IMG/VR virus record: IMGVR_UViG_2740892042_000001
Coordinates: 1-37,911 of that record
Source of the DNA: a virus
Lineage: Duplodnaviria; Heunggongvirae; Uroviricota; Caudoviricetes
Direction: 5' to 3' (one strand)
Length of the DNA stretch: 37,911 nucleotides
Shown one piece after another: positions 2,297-37,911 of this stretch (positions within the stretch are counted from its first letter, which is position 1; every line of letters begins with the position of its first letter). Made by a program: the position numbers and the translations under genes. The notes under the pieces are model-generated. The model was not told where the DNA came from. It saw nothing but the letters and a program-made list of their open reading frames with translations, and made no database searches.

Positions 2297-2578
2297 TTAA
2301 TCGTCAATGTATTTTGAGCATTGTGGGCAATCATCAATCCCACAATACGATTCATATGCATCCTTTATTGCGTCGCGGGCTTCAGTAAGAGTATTGAATA
2401 AGTTGCAGCTATTATCTTTTTGATATAGGTAAGTTCCTAATTTATAAGCAGAAGAAGCATCATTTCCGCTGTCTAAAATTACATCGTTATGGATTCTGCA
2501 CCTTGCAAGAACTCCTGATCCCATAAGGGTCTGCATAGCCCATTGCTCTTGATCTTCACACAAATCATGAATGCTCAT
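2297..2578 (-). CDS. Hypothetical Cys-rich protein (93 aa)
   Basis: Track ORF 2297..2596 begins at a GTG; internal ATG at 2578 has a GAGGTG RBS. Contains C-x2-C near the C-terminus (CGIDDCPQC); AT-rich upstream region 2600-2690. Confidence 0.5.
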   Translation of the reverse strand: MSIHDLCEDQEQWAMQTLMGSGVLARCRIHNDVILDSGNDASSAYKLGTYLYQKDNSCNLFNTLTEARDAIKDAYESYCGIDDCPQCSKYIDD

Positions 2579-2692
2579 TTCAACACCTCTCTTCACGTTT
2601 CACACACGTTAAGATTAACAGTGTTTTTACATGCTTTGGAAGATTTATTTTATAAAAACTCTTTTAATACAAATAGATATAATAGTTCACTA

Positions 2693-3256
2693 TTATAGCT
2701 CCTTTAATCGAGGCGGTTCTGGTAGTGGCATCCAGTGTGACGGCTCACATACCCCCTCAACACCATTCATGTAAAAGAATTGAAATAACCCTTTACCTTT
2801 GTGAAACCCTACCATCTGCTCTTTTGTGTCTGAGCAATAAACCAAAACATCTTCTTCGTTCGGCATTAGCTCACTACAGCTTATCCAACCATCCGGAGTT
2901 ACCGGAGAGTTGCCATTTACATCGAAGTTTGGCTCTGCGTCCTGAACCAGGAGGATGTAACCATTCTTGGCTGTATCAAGTTCTAACGCCTCGGTGACGG
3001 TGCCGAAATAGCGATTACCTAAATCAGCATCACAAGTGCTTACATCAATGGAAACTTCCATGCCTTCGATTAATTCTGGCAAGTTGTAAGTTTGGCTTAC
3101 AGGTTCTGCACTATCGGCTTCGCGCCGCTTCTGTAGCTCTGCTGCCATCGCTCTCACGACTTCAACTGGTGCCCTTGCAGCAAACTCTATGTTGGTGATC
3201 AGCTCATTAAGATATTGCTCGCTGGGATACTGTTTCTTATCGGTTAAAGGGGTCAT
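2693..3256 (-). CDS. DUF551-like phage protein
   Basis: C-terminal region (..GWISCSELMPNEEDVLVY..GFHKGKGLFQFF..HWMPLPEPP) matches my recollection of the DUF551 domain. Start set at MTPLTDKK (ATG 3256), 1 nt after the upstream gene's stop. Confidence 0.65.
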   Translation of the reverse strand: MTPLTDKKQYPSEQYLNELITNIEFAARAPVEVVRAMAAELQKRREADSAEPVSQTYNLPELIEGMEVSIDVSTCDADLGNRYFGTVTEALELDTAKNGYILLVQDAEPNFDVNGNSPVTPDGWISCSELMPNEEDVLVYCSDTKEQMVGFHKGKGLFQFFYMNGVEGVCEPSHWMPLPEPPRLKEL

Positions 3257-5718: not shown

Positions 5719-6426
5719 TTATGCCGCCTGTTTTAGTTCGTTAACTCTGATGTTCATTACCTGAACGCATTTAGCCTGCGCTTCCTCGTTGCCAGCCATT
5801 AATTGCCAGTCACGCTGATAACGCTCGATGAGTTTTTTCTTGTCAGTTTCTGTTGACGCATAATCGCTGAAGTCTTTCAGGATTTGTTCGCAGTCAACCG
5901 ATGGAGATTTCTGGTTGGTATTTTCTGGTGATGGTTTGTTATCTGATGCTGGGATTGCCCATCCCGGAAGCGATGGAGGGAGCCAGTAAAATCCTGTTCC
6001 ATCCTTCAGTTTTGCCCTGTGCCACCCCTGCTTTTTATCGAGAGATGTTTGTGCGAAACCTTCCTCAAGGTTATACAGATACCGACCGATTCCCCACTGA
6101 ACGGCAGCGCGCTTCATTGCACCGGAACGACCACCTTTGACGGCTTCTACCTGCGTGTTTTCAGCAGCATCCCATTTGGTTACCCATTCGGAATCAATCT
6201 TTATTGATATGCCGCATTCAACGCCGCCGTTGTTGGGAATATCGCGGTATTCATTGCGCCATCCTGCTTTGCCGCAAACATCGTCCAGGCGTTTCATGAT
6301 TGCCCGGTTCGTGACATAAGCCAGCACCATAGCCCACACCTTGCCATCGCGTGTTTTACCGCTTTGCTGTATTCGCCATTCGATATCTTCAGGGCTGAAT
6401 GGCTCATCGAATTTGTTCAAATCCAT
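5719..6426 (-). CDS. Rad52/Rad22-family single-strand annealing recombinase
   Basis: Motifs ..GGVECGISIK..KGGRSGAMKRAAVQWGIGRYLYNLEEGF.. characteristic of phage Rad52-like SSAPs; sits directly upstream of ssb (SSAP+SSB module). Confidence 0.8.
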   Translation of the reverse strand: MDLNKFDEPFSPEDIEWRIQQSGKTRDGKVWAMVLAYVTNRAIMKRLDDVCGKAGWRNEYRDIPNNGGVECGISIKIDSEWVTKWDAAENTQVEAVKGGRSGAMKRAAVQWGIGRYLYNLEEGFAQTSLDKKQGWHRAKLKDGTGFYWLPPSLPGWAIPASDNKPSPENTNQKSPSVDCEQILKDFSDYASTETDKKKLIERYQRDWQLMAGNEEAQAKCVQVMNIRVNELKQAA

Positions 6427-8487: not shown

Positions 8488-9840
<1,353 letters not shown>

Positions 9841-30316: not shown

Positions 30317-31732
30317 ATGGCTACGTGGCAACAGGGTATTAATTCTGGTGGTTTTCTGGCTGGCATCGGTACGCAAAACGAGAATGCGCCAAAGGCAAGC
30401 GACATTAACGCAACGCTTGGTCTGATCCGCGAAAACAATGAACTGGCTCGCTCAGGTGCAAATAACGTTGGCCTGACCGCCTTACGTGGTCTGGCTGGAG
30501 TTGCTGATATTTACAATCAGGAACAGCAACAGAAAGCTATTAGTGCGTTCAATAAGGTTCACGCTGATGCATGGGCTTCTGGTGATCCATCGGGACTATT
30601 TAAGTTTGCCCAGGAAAACCCAGCGTTTGTTGCGCAGGCACAACAGGCGTTTTCCGGTCTTAATGAGCAGCAACGCAACGATATGGGCGATTTAGCCATG
30701 AAGGCTAACGTCGCTCTTTCTCAGGGACCGGAAGCCTACAGTAAATTCATTACTGATAACAAGGACAGGTTAAATCGCGTGGGGGCGAATGCTGACTGGA
30801 TGATTCAGACAGGTATTCAGAATCCAGAGCAGCTATCACACATGCTGACTACTATGTCTCTCGGTGCACTTGGGCCAGAAAAGGCGTTTGCTGTTCAGGA
30901 CAAGATGGCTGGTCGTGAGATTGACCGAGGCAGGCTGGCAGAGACAATCCGCAGCAATCAGGCTGGAGAAGCACTTCAGGCGAGAGGGCAAAACCTTTCC
31001 TATCAGTCAGCAATGACTGGACACAATATCGCAGCACAACGCTTGGCTCTGGATCAGCAAGAGTTCGGGTTTAAGATGCAGCAAGCACAGGAAAAGGCTC
31101 AGCAGTTGATTAGCGAAGCACCTAAGCTATCAGTAAACATGGAAAAAGGCATCGAGACGGCTGTAAACAATGCTACAGCATCATCAAACTCAGCCAATTC
31201 TATGAGTGCGCTTGCTCAACAGTTCAGAGCAGAAAAACCAACGACAGGTTTGTTCGGTAACGCACAGAACATGTTCGCAAAACTTACCGGAAGCGATACA
31301 ACATTGCGTGATTTGCGCATCCGCCAAAATGCCCTTGTTAACAGTCAGGTTCTTAAATTCCTACCTCCCGGCCCCGCAACGGATAAAGACGTTGAGATCG
31401 TTCGGCAGGGTGCACCAACTGACATGGATAACCCTGAGACGGTCGCAAGATGGCTTGATGCGATGGCAAACCTTGAGCGACGAAACGCGCAGTTTAATGA
31501 GTTTAAAGCCGAGTGGATGAGCGCGAATGGCAATCCAGGACAATCGCGTAATGGCGGTCAGATATTGGGGTTGGATGTTAAAAAAGGTGAATCATTGGGG
31601 AGTGCCGTTAAGCGGTATATGTCAATGAATACTGACGCAGCGCCAGCACAAGATTCGACACCTTCAGGAGAACCACGGAATCAGGTTGGATCATATACCT
31701 CAAAATCAGGCATTCAATTTACGGTGGAATGA
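30317..31732 (+). CDS. Ejection protein (P22 gp20-like)
   Basis: 471 aa; size and synteny. Confidence 0.65.
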
Positions 31733-33570
31733 TGAAAGTAACTGCAAACGGTAAGACATTTACCTTTCCTGATGGTACGAGCACCGAAGATATTGGCACC
31801 GCCATTGATGAGTATTTTGCTGGTCAGGCTGTTCAGCAACAAACAGTTAATCAGGCCAATAATGCACCAACACGTGAAGAACCATCATTAATGCAACAAG
31901 CTGGCGATTGGCTCACTGGTGGTCAAAGTGCAGGGCAAATTGCAGAACAGGCTGGTCGTGGTCTGGTAAACATACCATTTGACGTATTGCAGGGTGGCGC
32001 AAGTCTGATTAATGCAATCAGTCAGGGGCTTGGTGGGCCAAAAGTATTGGATGATGTCTATCGTCCAGTCGATCGACCGACAGACCCTTATGCGCAAGCT
32101 GGAGAAACAATTGGCGGGTATTTAGTTCCAGGAGTTGGAACGGCAGGAAGCATGGCTATTGGATCACTGGCAGAGGCCGCAAATCAGAAAGGCGATTTCG
32201 CACAAAATGCAGCTAAAAATGCCGGAGTTAACCTTGCCGCTCAGGGTGTTCTTTCCGCAGCAGCAAAGGGAATAGGGCGTGGAATAACGGCTATAAAAGG
32301 TGATATTGCGCCAGAAGTGGCGAAGAAAATTGCCACATCAGAATCGATGGGCGTGACACCAATGACATCTGATGTTATCCCGCCGAAAAATGCTTTCACT
32401 CGCGGACTTACTCAGGATGCTGAGGGGGCTTTGCTCGGGACAGGCTCAAAGCGAGCGGAGCAATATGCAACGCGTAGTAAGCTGGTAAGCAATTATTTTG
32501 ACCGTTTTGGTGAGTACAACCCTGATGATGTGGTGAAATCTCTTACCACCACGTTAAGGGGGCGGAAGGATGCCGCTGGCGCTGTTATCAATGACGTCAC
32601 CAATAAAATGGGTAATGCCGCAGTTGATACCACAAATACCATGAATGCTCTGAATACAGCGATCGCAAGACAGGAACGGCTTGGGACGTCTGCCAATCAA
32701 AGCCTGCTTACATCCTTGCGTAACCTACGTGAAGAATTAGCAAACCCTGCAACTGATTTGGATGTTACGTTTGATCTCTTGCGTCAGCACAGAACAGCAT
32801 TTAGATCCAATGTTCAGGGAGATGCTATGGTCTTCCCCAACCAGGCAAAAGCAGCTACCAATATGGTAGAGAATGCAATGTCAAAAGATCTTCGTAACGC
32901 AGTTGCAAAAAACCTCGGTGCATCAGACGCAGCAAAATACCTTAAAGCAAACTCCGATTATGCAAACGTTTATAATAAGGTGCTTAATAAAAACATTGCT
33001 AACAAGCTCAACAAGGCAAGCAGTGAAGCCAGTCCTGAACTTATAAATACCGTTGTATTAAGCAGAAAACCATCTGACGTGAAACGAATCTGGAGCGCAT
33101 TGGATGATAAAGGGAAAGATGCTATGCGTGCAGCTTACGTCAGCAAAATAGCGGAAAAATCCGGTGACTCTCCAGCCAAGTTCATCACTGAAGTTAATAA
33201 GCTGAAATCTCAGTCAGGCGGTGAAATTTACAACACTATTTTTTCTGGAAAGCACATGAAAGAGCTTGATGCTCTTCATGAAGTTCTACAGCAAACAGCA
33301 AGGTCAGACACCGCAAATGTAGTAACTCAGACGGGGCAATCGCAAGCCAACAGGATAAGGACGATTGGCGCAACTGCGACTCTTGGCGTATCAATGGGGC
33401 TTGAGGCTGGTTTCGGTGCAATGATGCGCTTGTATGAGTCCAAAGCAGCAAGGAATGCGCTCTTACGTCTGGCAAACACCAAAGCAGGAACACCAGCCTA
33501 TGAAAGAGCGTTGAGTAACGCTGCAAATGCCATCAGGCCGCTGCTTGCTACTGAGGCAACACAGCAGTAA
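31729..33570 (+). CDS. Ejection protein (P22 gp16-like)
   Basis: 613 aa; size and synteny; overlaps upstream gene. Confidence 0.65.
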
Positions 33571-33594
33571 CGTATGGGGAATTGGATTCAATCG

Positions 33595-33984
33595 TTAACA
33601 TTTTCTTTTTACTTTTCCAACAAAAGCTTTGGTTGAATCCATATTCCCATAACCAGAAATGGTTTTTGACATTAAAACTGTTCCAGTAGGATGTATTACC
33701 CATGAGTCGATAACGCGTTGAGTTTCGCCATTCGCGCCGATTCCTATGATGGAGTTTTTAGACAATGCTTTGTAAGCCATGCCGCCTGCATCTGTCCCAG
33801 AATATGTGATGCTGGCATCTTCACCGTTTGTCTTAATGATGAATGTTCCACTAAAACCATCTTCTTCCGGATGGAAATTATTTCGTTCTGAATAGCTTAT
33901 TCCGCGCATATCTCCAACGACCCAGCACTCTGCTGTAGCCCCAAAAGATATGAATAAGAACATAGCAGTAAGAAATTGCTTCAC
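33595..33984 (-). CDS. Secreted protein with signal peptide, paralog of the cI-linked gene
   Basis: MKQFLTAMFLFISFGATA-ECW..; shares ECW start of mature chain, internal NG(D/E) and C-terminal STK(A/S)FVG..C with 8488..8892. Confidence 0.6.
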   Translation of the reverse strand: MKQFLTAMFLFISFGATAECWVVGDMRGISYSERNNFHPEEDGFSGTFIIKTNGEDASITYSGTDAGGMAYKALSKNSIIGIGANGETQRVIDSWVIHPTGTVLMSKTISGYGNMDSTKAFVGKVKRKC

Positions 33985-34101
33985 ACCAACCTCCTTAGTT
34001 TTGAGCAGGATACCATGAAAAAAGTAAACATCTTTTGCCTACTTCACATTTGAATGGTTTGTCATTAGGATGTTTCCGGTTTTTTAAATATGGAAATTGA
34101 T

Positions 34102-34521
34102 ATGAAGAGGATTATTGGCGTCGTTGCTGGCGCTATGATGTTATCTGGGTGCGCAACTATTGTTGGTGATGAAACGCAACTTGTGCAAGTGAACAGCAAT
34201 CCTTCCGGTGCGAGCTTTAAGGTAAAAGACGAATCAGGCGTGATTGTTGCGCAAGGTAAGACCCCGCAAGGAGTAACTCTTGCCAAGTCAGATGGTAGTT
34301 ATTTTGGCAAAAAGAGCTACCAGATCACTATGGAGAAGGATGGGTACGAACCAGTTACCCTGCCAATAAAAGCCAATGCTAATGGTTGGTATATTGGTGG
34401 AAACCTTGTGTTTGGTGGGTTAATTGGTTGGCTTGCTGTAGATCCATTTAATGGTGGGATGTATACCTTGAAGCCTAAAGAGGCAAATGCATCCCTTATA
34501 CCGTCCACAAAGCAAGACTAA
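34102..34521 (+). CDS. Lipoprotein (lipobox LSGC)
   Basis: MKRIIGVVAGAMMLSGC.. signal with lipobox; glycine-zipper-like C-terminal segment; start could also be ATG 34090. Confidence 0.6.
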   Translation: MKRIIGVVAGAMMLSGCATIVGDETQLVQVNSNPSGASFKVKDESGVIVAQGKTPQGVTLAKSDGSYFGKKSYQITMEKDGYEPVTLPIKANANGWYIGGNLVFGGLIGWLAVDPFNGGMYTLKPKEANASLIPSTKQD

Positions 34522-34537
34522 TAAATGGAACCCACCA

Positions 34538-34789
34538 TCAGGTGGGTTTTTTGTACAAATCCTTCAGCGTATCAAACACCATCTTCTTAACAAGTTCAGA
34601 CTGCTCATCAGCGATGCGTTCCGCATCGTCTCGATAGCCTGAAATTTTGGATGGCTTTGATACAGCATCAGTAACTATCTGAACTAATTCTGAATTAAGA
34701 GAGCGGCCATTGGATTTGGCTCGCTGTTTTAGTTTTTCCTTTAATTCGTAAGGTAGCCGCAGATTAAATTGCGGGTCATCTCTTCCCAT
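34538..34789 (-). CDS. mnt: Mnt-type ribbon-helix-helix repressor
   Basis: 83 aa MGRDDPQFNLRLPYELKEKLKQRAKSNGRSLNSELVQIV..SELVKKMVFDTLKDLYKK parallels P22 Mnt. Confidence 0.85.
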   Translation of the reverse strand: MGRDDPQFNLRLPYELKEKLKQRAKSNGRSLNSELVQIVTDAVSKPSKISGYRDDAERIADEQSELVKKMVFDTLKDLYKKPT

Positions 34790-34852
34790 TCTTGATGCCT
34801 CGCTTTTGTGAGTGGATCGGCATCTTATTATCTGCTGGTTGCATCCTCAATA

Positions 34853-34867
34853 AGACCACAGTGGTCT
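34853..34867. promoter_or_regulatory. Perfect 15-bp palindrome AGACCACAGTGGTCT (candidate Mnt operator)
   Basis: Inverted repeat in the mnt-tailspike intergenic region, 64 bp upstream of mnt. Confidence 0.5.
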
Positions 34868-34935
34868 CTTTGTTCGATTAATAATGCATCACTGTGGCAA
34901 TGCTGCGGCGATTCCTTGTATCTGGAGCAAATTAA

Positions 34936-37587
34936 ATGACAGACATTACAGCCAATGTTGTAGTCAGCATGCCTTCGCAACTCTTCACTATGGCTCGTTC
35001 TTTTAAAGCCGTAGCTAATGGAAAGATTTATATCGGTAAAATTGACACTGACCCAGTAAATCCTGAAAACCAGATTCAGGTTTATGTGGAGAATGAAGAC
35101 GGTTCTCACGTTCCTGTTTCGCAACCAATAATCATTAACGCTGCTGGATATCCGGTATATAACGGACAGATTGCCAAATTCGTTACCGTGCAAGGCCATT
35201 CTATGGCTGTTTATGATGCGTATGGTTCGCAGCAGTTCTATTTTCCAAACATTCTGAAATATGATCCTGATCAGTTTAAACAAGAACTAGAGAATAAGTT
35301 TAACAATGGTTCAACTCCATCAATTATAAATTATAAGTACGGTCTTCCAGAAGAAGTAGACGGAGCAACACAAAGGACGCTACAGGATAAACTTGATGAC
35401 CATGTAAATGTTCGCGATTTTGGTGCAAAAGGGGATGGCATTACTGACGATACAGACGCAATAACAAATGCCATCATTTACTGCGCATCTAACGGAAAAC
35501 GCCTGAAGTGGGATTCTGGTGTGTATTTGATTAGCCGCATAAAATGCGGCGGGGATAATTATAACTATGACTGGGTAGCTGATGGCAAGGTTGTCTTAAA
35601 GTCAACCGCAAAAGAGCCTCTTGGCCCAAACTGGATTGATGATTATTTCATAAGACTCGAAGGTGGAGATGCCACGCCAATTGACTATAATTCAACAATA
35701 AATCCTGGTGACACATCAATATCAATTAACTCAGCATATTCTGTTGATGCAGGCGATATAATTATGATTCATGGCAATCGCTTAATTCAGACAGATAATA
35801 GAGGACAGGCTTGTGAAGGTGAAATGCATGTTGTTACTGCTTTTGATAATGCAACAAAAAAAGCGGAGATATCAGGTGCATTTTATTTTTTCTACTCTGC
35901 GAGCAATGATTACTCAACGACCGTAACAGCATCTGTATCCGGAGGTGAATTCTCATTTGGTAATGATGCAACATTAACAAAACAATACAATCAGGTAAAA
36001 GTAACAGGTGTCACCGGAGCTAACGCCGGAATATCAAGATACATAACTCATTGGGATTACGACACTAAAACAGCAAAATTTGAATATGCTCAGGGACCAT
36101 TCCCGTTTAAACCATCTGTTGGAGACGTGTTTAAAATCACAAGAAAGGCAAATATATATAAAAGAAAACCATGCTACGGCAGAATTGTCGGTGATTTCAA
36201 TTTTGAAAGACCTGTCACGCAGAACGCATCTCCTGGTGATTTGGGGTTCCGTGGTCTTGTGATAGATGGCGCTGTTGATATGCATATAGAAGGAATAAAA
36301 CTAATCGGCTTTTCAGAAACTGGAATTTTTCTTGAGTCATGCTACAGAACGAAAATAATAGAACCATATATTGAATACTCAAACCGTGCATATGATTTAA
36401 CAAATGGCACTGGTTATGGTGTTGAAATATACAATAGCAGCTATTGCACAGTCGTGGATATGATAGCATTTGCTTGCAGGAGGGGGCTTGATGTAAGCGG
36501 GACTCAAATGGTATCACTGTATAATAACATTATAAATCCAACGATGATGGGGGGTGGAACTGCATATGATGGAGTTAAATTTTTCCCTGATGGCGATACA
36601 AGAAATTCATGTTGCGGTGGACACGGCCCATCATACGAAACAACTTTTACAGGCGGCAATTCAGTCAATTTGTATTATGCTGGTGTAATACGCGGATTAA
36701 ATGAAGTGTATGATGGAATGAACGCCAGGGGATTTAGCGGCCCGGCTCCTTTTTTTGTAAGATATAGTGGTGGTGGGTTCACGATTCAGAACTGTAATTA
36801 TATTGATGGTTTTACTGAGATGTCTTTGCCATACAACTTGAGGTACAAACCTGTGAATGCAACTCAACGTAATCACAGACCTCTTGTTTTTATTGAAACA
36901 ACTCTGGCACAGACAGACAGAAACTCTTACTATAAAGAACTTCCTGTTGTTATTAAGAATAATACCGCAAGGACTGTTCTCAAGGGCTTTTTACGTTTTG
37001 AGGTTAATGATGGCCTCACCCCTCTAATCCAAAATATTTATTTTGGTGGTAATTTATGCATGGCGAACCCAGAAACATCAGACTCTGTATCAGGGCAAAC
37101 AGAGGCAGTAATGGTTTATTCATCTGTTCCTGGTGCAATAATTGTTCGAAATTTCCATGATCTTGGCGGTAACAGAATTGTTCCTGTTGGAGCAGGATAC
37201 AGATACTGCGGTATGTTCAACACGCCAGATGGAATAGCAGGAACAATAGTTCAACCAGACGGAAAATATCTAATAACACTTGAAGCCAACAAATCTACAA
37301 GTATCCTTGTTGGTGGATACGTCCCATGTGTTCGCCTTGATATGCACGACATACTTGATATTCATGGGGTAATTGCAGTTGGTGTTCTTATTCATCGTGG
37401 TGAGGCAATTGATTTTTCTCCTTTAAAAGAAATTAATAAGCAAAATGTTGTATTGAAAACCGGAGTTCTTTCAGATAATGATGGTGATGAAAATAACTTA
37501 AATATTTCGTTTGACTTTGCAACCATATATTTAAGCAACAAGATGCCAAATAAGATTCAACTATCTATTGAAGTATCAGGAGTGTAA
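34936..37587 (+). CDS. Tailspike protein (P22-type head-binding N-domain, beta-helix receptor-binding body)
   Basis: N-terminal ~115 aa [46 protein letters not shown].. matches the P22/Sf6/HK620 head-binding domain; the remaining ~770 aa are AT-rich and Asn/Gly/Tyr-rich. Confidence 0.9.
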
Positions 37588-37623
37588 TTGTATCAATTTG
37601 CTAAATTAAAAAAGGATAAAAAT

Positions 37624-37911
37624 ATGGATACAACACCAATAACACATGCAGTATGCGCGGTTATTGCGCAGATACTGGTTGGCCTTTCTACCGGAAACTT
37701 GGCTTACGGTGCGATAGCCGGTTGTACGTTCTTCATTGCGCGTGAACACACCCAGGCAGAATATCGCTGGATAGAAAAGTTTGGGAAAGGGAAACGTATC
37801 AACCTGCCATGGTGGGGAGGTTTTGATCCACGCGTGTGGGATGTTGGAAGTCTGTTGGATTTTTCTTTCCCAATTATCGGATGCTTATTGGTATGGATTC
37901 TTGCATCGTAG
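37624..37911 (+). CDS. Hypothetical membrane protein (95 aa) downstream of tailspike
   Basis: ATG 37624 with AAGGAT RBS; two hydrophobic segments; stop codon is the last 3 bases of the window. Confidence 0.5.
   Translation: MDTTPITHAVCAVIAQILVGLSTGNLAYGAIAGCTFFIAREHTQAEYRWIEKFGKGKRINLPWWGGFDPRVWDVGSLLDFSFPIIGCLLVWILAS

Follow-up and report, generated by a model that had tools for sequence, protein, structure and literature searches.

The window (the whole stretch of DNA that was analysed, 37,911 nucleotides) is a P22-like (Lederbergvirus-type) prophage of E. coli, and several complete E. coli genomes hold copies that are 98% identical to it; E. coli CEA601S and E1 are among the strains with the locus at this identity. 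Two genes, referred to here as ORF A and ORF B, lie between the ejection-protein genes, which end at 33570, and the mnt repressor gene. The features of this interval and its flanks are listed below.

31729..33570, plus strand: gp16-type DNA ejection protein gene, the left border of the moron; a 613-aa ORF that follows gp7 and gp20
33595..33984, minus strand: ORF A, predicted secreted Hex-family protein; 129-aa precursor, about 111 aa when mature; phrog_2651, E 2.9e-61
33931..33984, minus strand: predicted signal peptide of ORF A, residues 1–18, with predicted cleavage between ATA and EC; read from the sequence, the leader and Cys-aromatic being family-wide
33985..34089: conserved divergent intergenic region, 105 bp
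33990..33996, minus strand: ribosome-binding site AAGGAGG
34007..34015, minus strand: candidate extended −10 element, TGGTATCCT, read from the sequence; retained in phage Emek
34043..34071, plus strand: sigma-70-like site TTCACA-17-TAGGAT, from a consensus scan
34090..34521, plus strand: ORF B, predicted outer-membrane lipoprotein; 143 aa; phrog_6823, E 8.8e-86
34141..34152, plus strand: lipobox LSGC of ORF B, with Ala at +2
34529..34548: bidirectional hairpin terminator at the ORF B/mnt junction, from a terminator scan; T-run good on the plus strand and poor on the minus strand
34538..34789, minus strand: mnt repressor gene, the right border of the moron; Pfam Arc 2.8e-22, Repressor_Mnt 2.2e-18
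34936..37587: tailspike gene, starting 146 bp beyond mnt

A first-pass annotation of this DNA had placed the two genes between ejection genes and mnt, and the domain matches agree with it: gp7 (PF25688) and gp20 (PF16928) are encoded upstream of gp16 on one side, and the Arc and Repressor_Mnt matches identify the gene on the other. The gp16 homologue itself had no match in our local copy of Pfam; its RefSeq name is P22-gp16 family ejection protein, and PF26808 is on record for a protein of equal length that is encoded beside the ORF A homologue in prophages of Salmonella. Neither arc nor ant follows mnt in the window. The equivalent in epsilon34 of the hairpin at the ORF B/mnt junction is annotated as a rho-independent terminator. 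An Rfam search over 33000..35500 returned no RNA family, indicating that no sar-type RNA is encoded here.

In P22 the sieA gene is located between genes 16 and 9 (PMC10883804; PMC2629481), an interval that was named the "ant moron" by Villafane et al. 2008 and shown to be the most fluid part of the late region of P22-like phages (PMC2629481). SieA blocks DNA injection, mutations that escape it fall in the C-terminal portions of gp16 and gp20, and only 22 of 66 P22-like phages carry the gene (Leavitt et al. 2024, PMC10883804). ORF A and ORF B lie in this same hypervariable interval, between homologues of gene 16 and gene 9 in a P22-like prophage, so the comparison with the position of sieA made in the first-pass annotation is correct. 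The hallmarks of SieA itself (3–4 TM helices and the motif FxRYPxEAxxFNK) are absent from both products, each of which has one leader or lipobox at the N-terminus and lacks the RYP motif. The further claim that neither protein resembles a virion component was also sustained, as both fall into PHROGs of unknown function and gave no structural Pfam match. No family among the PADLOC-DB models matched either protein at E-values up to 1, and fold searches with both returned only generic small barrels and Ig-like sandwiches.

ORF A and the Hex family

Translation of ORF A begins at a GTG codon 5 nt downstream of the Shine-Dalgarno sequence AAGGAGG, and the N-terminus of the product, MKQFLTAMFLFISFGATA followed by ECW, is typical of a Sec leader. 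A hydrophobic leader followed by Cys-aromatic was found in 147 of 150 family members, with the von Heijne residues A/S/V at −3 and A/S/G at −1. Hence the minus-strand secreted protein of the first-pass annotation was confirmed, with a leader that is conserved among its relatives. An even number of cysteines is conserved in the approximately 150 members, 131 of which have a Cys within the last 6 residues. In an alignment that includes Hex, Cys20, right after the leader, is invariant, Trp95 and Cys129 are nearly so, and the position of Cys129 is the last or nearly the last residue. The AF2 model (pLDDT 89.7) is an all-beta barrel, and a dN/dS of about 0.29 points to purifying selection. The family-wide leader, the Cys pair and the confident beta-barrel model indicate that the ORF A product is envelope-targeted and periplasmic. 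An integral outer-membrane barrel is an unlikely interpretation of the model, as the C-terminal residue is Cys rather than an aromatic residue, the mature protein has only about 111 residues and the Cys pair is conserved. ORF A had no match in Pfam, NCBIfam or PADLOC. Sequence searches of the PDB with single proteins and with profiles gave no significant match, and a structure search of BFVD gave none at E < 1e-3.

When phage genomes were searched by tblastn (2.3 Gb), ORF A matched genes of 434, lambda imm434, Sf6 (gene 38), HK446, HK633 and Sf101 over 100% of its length, with E-values of 2e-5 to 5e-4. These genes sit directly downstream of the repressor gene, and in 434 that gene is Hex. ORF A is 27% identical to 434 Hex over the full length (BLASTP E 3e-12), and hhalign aligned it with the Hex subfamily across all 129 columns (99.6%, E 1.5e-23). 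An exhaustive search of 1.84 billion representatives gave a family of 89 clusters. By these homology measures, ORF A is a divergent paralog of phage 434 Hex and Sf6 gp38, with which it shares a PHROG (phrog_2651). Since identity is only 27–29%, the specificity of ORF A may differ from that of Hex.

A second member of the family is encoded elsewhere in the window, immediately downstream of the repressor gene.

8488..8892, minus strand: canonical Hex paralog; 96% identical to 434 Hex; phrog_2651, E 7.7e-59
8889..9521, minus strand: 434-type cI, with HTH_3 and Peptidase_S24

The canonical Hex of the window is 29% identical to ORF A (BLASTP E 1e-12). Judged by sequence homology, the window prophage carries two Hex paralogs, one in the immunity region and one in the sieA slot, and the two types were found together in three or more IMG/VR viral contigs. 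In 434, Sf6 and Klebsiella prophages Hex comes after cI, as it does at 8488..8892; ORF A does not occupy a cI-adjacent position co-transcribed from PRM, adjoining gene 16 about 24 kb from cI. Adjacency to cI is a feature of the locus and not of the protein family.

According to the account given in PMC3564112, which cites Susskind and Botstein 1980, Salmonella lysogens of lambda imm434 exclude P22 and hex− prophages do not, and this "heterologous exclusion" of P22 gave Hex its name. Shkilnyj et al. 2013 proposed that Hex shields the 434 repressor against the cleavage that RecA stimulates; hex− lysogens had 30-fold higher spontaneous induction, and a Hex fragment inhibited repressor cleavage in vitro (PMC3564112). 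Hex was modelled in that study as a 158-aa cytoplasmic protein starting inside cI, with no mention of a signal peptide, the periplasm or membranes; overexpression of the full-length construct was lethal, and the fragment, sHex, was purified with GuHCl (PMC3564112). In the 158-aa ORF, the first residue of the sHex "active fragment" is Glu43, precisely where signal peptidase is predicted to cut, between TSANS and ECW; the fragment ends at Asn103, so that it covers only about half of the barrel. The lethality of full-length Hex on overexpression might fit a protein with an internal export signal. For the whole Hex family, a periplasmic site of action is more likely than a cytoplasmic one. In the one biochemical study of Hex, the role given to the protein is cytoplasmic (PMC3564112), which fits poorly with the family-wide export signals; a periplasmic location, for its part, leaves the genetic effect of Hex on induction unexplained. 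Our search of the literature found no relevant later work on Hex.

ORF B and its relatives

The probable start of ORF B is at 34102, the second Met and the one used by homologues, which gives a protein of 139 aa with the N-terminus MKRIIGVVAGAMMLSGC followed by A. The first-pass annotation had described a plus-strand lipoprotein with the lipobox LSGC, and this reading is well supported by the family: a lipobox was found in 108 of 114 members, with Ala at +2 in 106 of these. The lipobox conforms to [LVI][ASTVI][GAS]C with no Asp at +2, as expected of an outer-membrane lipoprotein; lipidation is predicted, and under the +2 rule the Ala at this position predicts sorting to the outer membrane. ORF B is under strong purifying selection (dN 0.14–0.27, with dS saturated). 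In the AF2 model, residues 25–93 form a beta-sandwich with pLDDT > 90, followed by an almost invariant, poorly predicted Gly-rich hydrophobic motif, NGWYIGGN.VFGGLIGW..VDPFNGGMY, and a terminal hairpin.

The family was represented by 597 homologues. ORF B is 98% identical to gene 15 of epsilon34 and to GALLYPH_14, and in 2008 it had been noted only for its matches to many bacterial genes, without a function being known (PMC2629481). The homologues that were looked up all lay in prophages and not in the core chromosome. In lambdoid/HK97-like prophages of E. coli ED1a and Proteus, the ORF B relative is found between tail chaperone T and the tape-measure gene, and in Pseudescherichia, again in a lambdoid siphovirus prophage, it is found between genes I and J. 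ORF B is a widely travelling lipoprotein moron, the family of which is already catalogued and is uncharacterised.

Several more specific assignments were considered. The PEGA domain (PF08308) scored 17.5 bits against ORF B, below the Pfam cut-off of 20.8, and some RefSeq copies are named 'peptidase associated/transthyretin-like domain-containing protein'. Foldseek comparison of the model with the PDB returned only Ig-like and transthyretin-like sandwiches with E > 0.01. We rejected LEPBI_I2678, a weak partial match of 22.8 bits against a cut-off of 240, and also Cor (NF047972/phrog_1119), which scored 12.5 bits against a cut-off of 31 and aligned with residues 5–33, the signal peptide only. 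The JGI label 'YceK', carried by some homologues, was not supported by any Pfam match. A literature search for lipoproteins of this type (PEGA lipoprotein, prophage) found nothing relevant.

Exchange and expression of the two cassettes

Relatives were collected by single-protein scans, and the comparison covered 80 viral contigs with close relatives of ORF A and 80 with relatives of ORF B. ORF A was arranged tail-to-tail with gp16 in all 80 of its contigs, and mnt lay upstream on the same strand at a distance of 300 to 3000 bp, with variable cargo in between. In about 20 of the 80 loci this cargo was ORF B, and in 13 it was a T6SS immunity protein of the Rap1a family (PF18602, 55 bits); the remainder had various other genes. 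Of the ORF B contigs, 74 of 80 were P22-like. The slot of ORF A was filled by ORF A itself in 20 of the 80, by a Gally-type lipoprotein in 17 and by a protein of the epsilon34 gene 14 type (N-terminal TM plus coiled coil) in 12, with small 2-TM proteins or other genes in the others. The two genes had been presented in the first-pass annotation as a pair. This part of the annotation was not supported; they assort independently, and we conclude that ORF A and ORF B are neighbouring cassettes rather than a functional pair.

The alternative occupants of exactly the ORF A slot are all envelope proteins, namely a lipoprotein, a protein that combines a TM segment with a coiled coil, and two small proteins with 2 TM segments, and their genes have the upstream region, RBS and start codon in common. 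The 105-bp region is nearly identical in epsilon34 and in two IMG/VR prophages, and on its left each of them has an unrelated minus-strand ORF. A DNA alignment of these four contexts placed the point of change at the start codon: the 105-bp region, the RBS and the GTG start are the same, and the coding sequence then changes completely. From this combination of a fixed upstream region, RBS and GTG with a swapped coding sequence we conclude that the slot exchanges envelope proteins behind fixed expression signals. Slot-gene types and types of gp16 C-terminus tend to go together, as expected of adjacent DNA. Most P22-like phages lack ORF A and ORF B, which are intact across more than 80 loci each. 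The patchy distribution among otherwise syntenic relatives and the swapping of cassettes, together with the terminator after ORF B and the promoter-like site before it, give the pattern of a moron, the promoters being consensus-level predictions.

A strong sigma-70 consensus promoter for ORF A was not found in the window, where there is a candidate extended −10 element without a −35. ORF B is preceded by a sigma-70-like site, which is a consensus-level prediction only, and followed by a T-run hairpin. Between ORF A and mnt lie the terminator and ORF B, which has the opposite orientation; because of this inserted gene, co-transcription of ORF A with mnt is unlikely in the window. In Salmonella relatives the order is mnt, a Rap1a-like gene and the ORF A homologue, all on one strand and with a 15-bp gap before the latter, which suggests that the Salmonella homologue is co-transcribed with mnt, a repressor that is expressed from the prophage. 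Expression of ORF A in the window is uncertain, and we infer that ORF A and ORF B are expressed in the lysogen.

Interpretation and comparison with known systems

We give an even chance to the explanation that the gene 16–mnt interval consists of two moron cassettes that add proteins to the envelope, ORF A being a periplasmic block to DNA delivery and ORF B an outer-membrane modifier. ORF A would be exported by Sec and its leader cut, probably after Ala18; once mature, the protein would have about 111 residues and form a small beta-barrel of eight or nine strands in which Cys20, in the first strand, and Cys129, in the last, are probably joined by a disulfide. It would act in the periplasm and block the DNA-delivery step of superinfecting phages, most plausibly P22-like ones. 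Its target would be the trans-envelope conduit built from the ejection proteins, whose genes adjoin ORF A, making it a putative periplasmic counterpart of the inner-membrane SieA that holds the same slot in P22. ORF B would be lipidated at Cys17, sorted to the outer membrane via Ala +2 and present a PEGA-like beta-sandwich together with its invariant Gly-rich hydrophobic C-terminal motif. Most likely it would modify or mask an outer-membrane component needed for adsorption or DNA ejection, in the manner of Cor or Llp and unrelated to both.

The components of this explanation differ in strength. The analysis shows the gene structure, the targeting signals, the relationship of ORF A to Hex, the fold, the behaviour as morons and the purifying selection. 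We infer exclusion as the phenotype of ORF A, with support from the Hex homology, and also its periplasmic site of action; analogy with SieA would suggest the ejection-protein conduit as the target. It is by analogy only that ORF B may be an outer-membrane exclusion or surface-modifying lipoprotein. The first-pass annotation had proposed both genes as candidates for superinfection exclusion or lysogenic conversion. This proposal gained ground for ORF A, a homologue of the 434 gene that was named for exclusion of P22, and for ORF B it did not advance beyond analogy. That the two products are blockers of rival phages is plausible.

ORF A might instead be a cytoplasmic factor of the kind published for Hex, which would bind the 434-type repressor, prevent its RecA-stimulated autocleavage and so stabilise lysogeny. 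The homology of ORF A with Hex is solid, the repressor in the window is of the 434 type, and both the 30-fold rise in induction of hex− lysogens and the inhibition of cleavage in vitro (PMC3564112) have to be accommodated. However, the leader and Cys pair found throughout the family, along with the barrel fold, argue for export, a signal peptide was never considered in PMC3564112, and the fragment that gave the in vitro result begins exactly at the predicted signal-peptidase site, Glu43, represents no more than about half the barrel and had been purified with GuHCl. Moreover, this prophage already has a cI-linked Hex, whereas some 24 kb separate ORF A from cI, and its slot is otherwise used only for envelope proteins. 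We therefore regard a cytoplasmic role as improbable. A better case can be made that one of the proteins, or both, serve the fitness of the host (lysogenic conversion) and have nothing to do with phage exclusion, ORF A for example as a periplasmic inhibitor or immunity protein acting against peptidoglycan hydrolases or T6SS effectors, and ORF B as a lipoprotein like Bor or Lom with a part in serum resistance, adhesion or envelope stress. Immunity to peptidoglycan-targeting effectors is suggested by the Rap1a cassette in the neighbourhood. Neither protein has a sequence match or a specific structural match to known inhibitor, immunity or virulence families, however, and among the relatives of ORF A the only characterised one is a gene for exclusion; we consider a host-fitness role unlikely.

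The adjacency of the two genes, their divergence around the common 105-bp region and the recurrence of the combination at about 98% identity in at least nine complete E. coli genomes could be taken to mean that they make up a single two-component system, dependent on the products of both. The distribution data largely refute this idea, making it very improbable: each gene accompanies the other in only about a quarter of its loci (about 20/80 for ORF A, 20/80 for ORF B), each has several other partners, and ORF B is also found alone in siphovirus tail clusters. Least credible, with hardly any probability in our judgement, is that the genes encode virion or assembly components or are decaying non-functional ORFs. 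Their position in the late-operon region beside the ejection and tailspike genes speaks for such an interpretation, but ORF A lies on the strand opposite to the late operon, both products have secretion or lipoprotein signals and no structural PHROG or Pfam match, most P22-like phages lack both genes, and both are under purifying selection, with ORFs intact in more than 80 loci each.

Having preferred the explanation of two envelope-protein cassettes, we tentatively put forward a wider extension of it, which taken as a whole is less likely to be true than not. Hex-family proteins, including ORF A and 434 Hex, would be periplasmic gatekeepers that bind a component of the ejection conduit or tail tip of the incoming phage and stop DNA delivery, the cytoplasmic anti-RecA activity published for a Hex fragment being secondary or an artefact. 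The slot after gene 16 would serve specifically for expression, P22-like phages exchanging one envelope exclusion protein for another there behind a fixed promoter, RBS and start codon, and ORF B would represent a new class of exclusion lipoprotein in the outer membrane, common to podovirus and siphovirus prophages.

These findings connect Hex, which is among the oldest genetically defined exclusion functions, with a gene that had no annotation and is found repeatedly in P22-like prophages of E. coli and Salmonella, and they indicate that one prophage can hold two diverged Hex paralogs, in the immunity region and in the sieA slot. The export signals found across the family conflict with the published mechanism of Hex, and if Hex is periplasmic and exclusion by it depends on export, the accepted mechanism could need revision. 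The slot with fixed expression signals, and the lipoprotein moron common to short- and long-tailed prophages, are candidates for new mechanisms of envelope-level superinfection exclusion, and are relevant to prophage-mediated phage resistance in E. coli and Salmonella.

Among known systems, 434 Hex, which is of one type with the Sf6 gene 38 protein, is the closest to ORF A. The two have the same length, a leader followed by Glu-Cys-Trp, a C-terminal Cys and full-length homology (27–29%), and both are encoded by accessory genes of lambdoid and P22-like prophages. Their sequences are nevertheless highly diverged, and 434 Hex lies in the PRM operon after cI, whereas ORF A is in the ant moron by gene 16 with its own upstream region. 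SieA resembles ORF A in occupying the slot between genes 16 and 9 and in being an envelope-located prophage accessory protein, and its block of the gp16/gp20 DNA-delivery conduit is the model for how ORF A may act. There is no sequence relationship, however: SieA is a protein of the inner membrane with 3–4 TM segments and the motif FxRYPxEAxxFNK, in contrast to the predicted soluble secreted barrel of ORF A and the lipoprotein ORF B. The HXS periplasmic effector is reported to block phage DNA entry (Nat Commun 2026, PMC13128918) and is a precedent for a secreted periplasmic protein with this action; it is an rSAM-matured His-x-Ser repeat effector and belongs to an unrelated system. For ORF B, the comparison is with Cor of phi80, N15 and HK022 and with Llp of T5, which are likewise small outer-membrane lipoproteins encoded by morons near tail genes, and whose blocking of receptors or of entry is a plausible functional analogy. 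The placement of ORF B relatives among tail and ejection genes also brings Cor to mind. ORF B is about twice as long and has the beta-sandwich and Gly-rich motif; what resembles Cor is the lipoprotein signal peptide only, and ORF B is not a Cor relative. The epsilon34 and GALLYPH_14 genes have the same position as ORF B, upstream of mnt in the P22-like 'ant moron', and in these phages the slot that ORF A fills in the window is taken by gene 14, an hkcB homologue, in epsilon34 and by a lipoprotein gene in Gally.

The slot and its exchangeable cargo

The region at 33985..34089 is a fixed expression slot whose cargo is exchangeable. Its conserved elements were located at the following positions among the loci compared:

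window, 33985..34089: conserved intergenic region, RBS and GTG start
locus L001, about 3001..3121: the same elements
loci L105 and L109, about 5884..6000: the same elements

Across the window, L001, L105 and L109, the minus-strand ORF is swapped for unrelated envelope proteins exactly at the start codon, with the upstream signals being kept. In the window this ORF is ORF A, the gene for the secreted Hex-family protein that adjoins the ejection-protein gene gp16. Comparison of the C-terminal 200 aa of gp16 across loci L024-L183 showed that the gp16 C-terminus was of the window type (84-100% identity) in 73 of the 80 loci with ORF A relatives. The epsilon34 gp14-type and Gally-type lipoprotein slot genes go with other gp16 C-terminal types, and small 2-TM slot genes were also found with window-type gp16.

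Other cargo of the ant moron and homologues of ORF B

The stretch that separates mnt from the ORF A homologue holds further recurrent cargo ORFs (e.g. of 125, 149, 164 and 353 aa), each in 8-14 of loci L024-L103. One Salmonella P22-like prophage carries the following arrangement:

locus L019, 4399..5390, one strand: mnt, a Rap1a-family T6SS immunity protein gene (PF18602) and an ORF A homologue, head-to-tail

A T6SS immunity-like gene as phage-moron cargo is noteworthy on its own.

Homologues of ORF B, the predicted outer-membrane lipoprotein gene, were found inserted in siphovirus tail-gene clusters (68-80% identity; L006-L012, L022-L023 and L178-L183), where they separate either T from the tape-measure gene or I from J. 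A porin moron was also observed in E. coli between tail genes M and L, a few kb from ORF B homologues.

Two Hex paralogs and the Hex leader

window, 8488..9521, minus strand: 434-type immunity region, with canonical Hex coming after cI (210 aa)
phage 434 (L004), 2429..2905: 158-aa Hex ORF, with its counterpart at 8488..8964 of the window

The canonical Hex of the window is 96% identical to 434 Hex and 29% identical to the ORF A product. One genome therefore contains two Hex paralogs; both types also occur together in at least three IMG/VR contigs.

The N-terminus of the Hex fragment sHex (Shkilnyj et al. 2013, PMC3564112) corresponds to Glu43 of the 158-aa ORF, which is the exact predicted signal-peptidase cleavage site (TSANS|ECW). 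Export of Hex was nowhere considered in that study, and the cytoplasmic mechanism published for Hex may need to be re-examined.

The right end of the window

window, 37588..37911, plus strand: hydrophobic-protein ORF directly after the tailspike gene

This ORF runs up to the window's final base, 37911, and may be cut off there. Its product is hydrophobic, had no Pfam match and is probably a membrane protein, and the ORF could be an additional lysogenic-conversion gene. On the other side of the tailspike gene, whose start lies 146 bp beyond mnt, the interval 34538..34935 holds mnt without arc, ant and sar. Phage Gally likewise has an orphan mnt.
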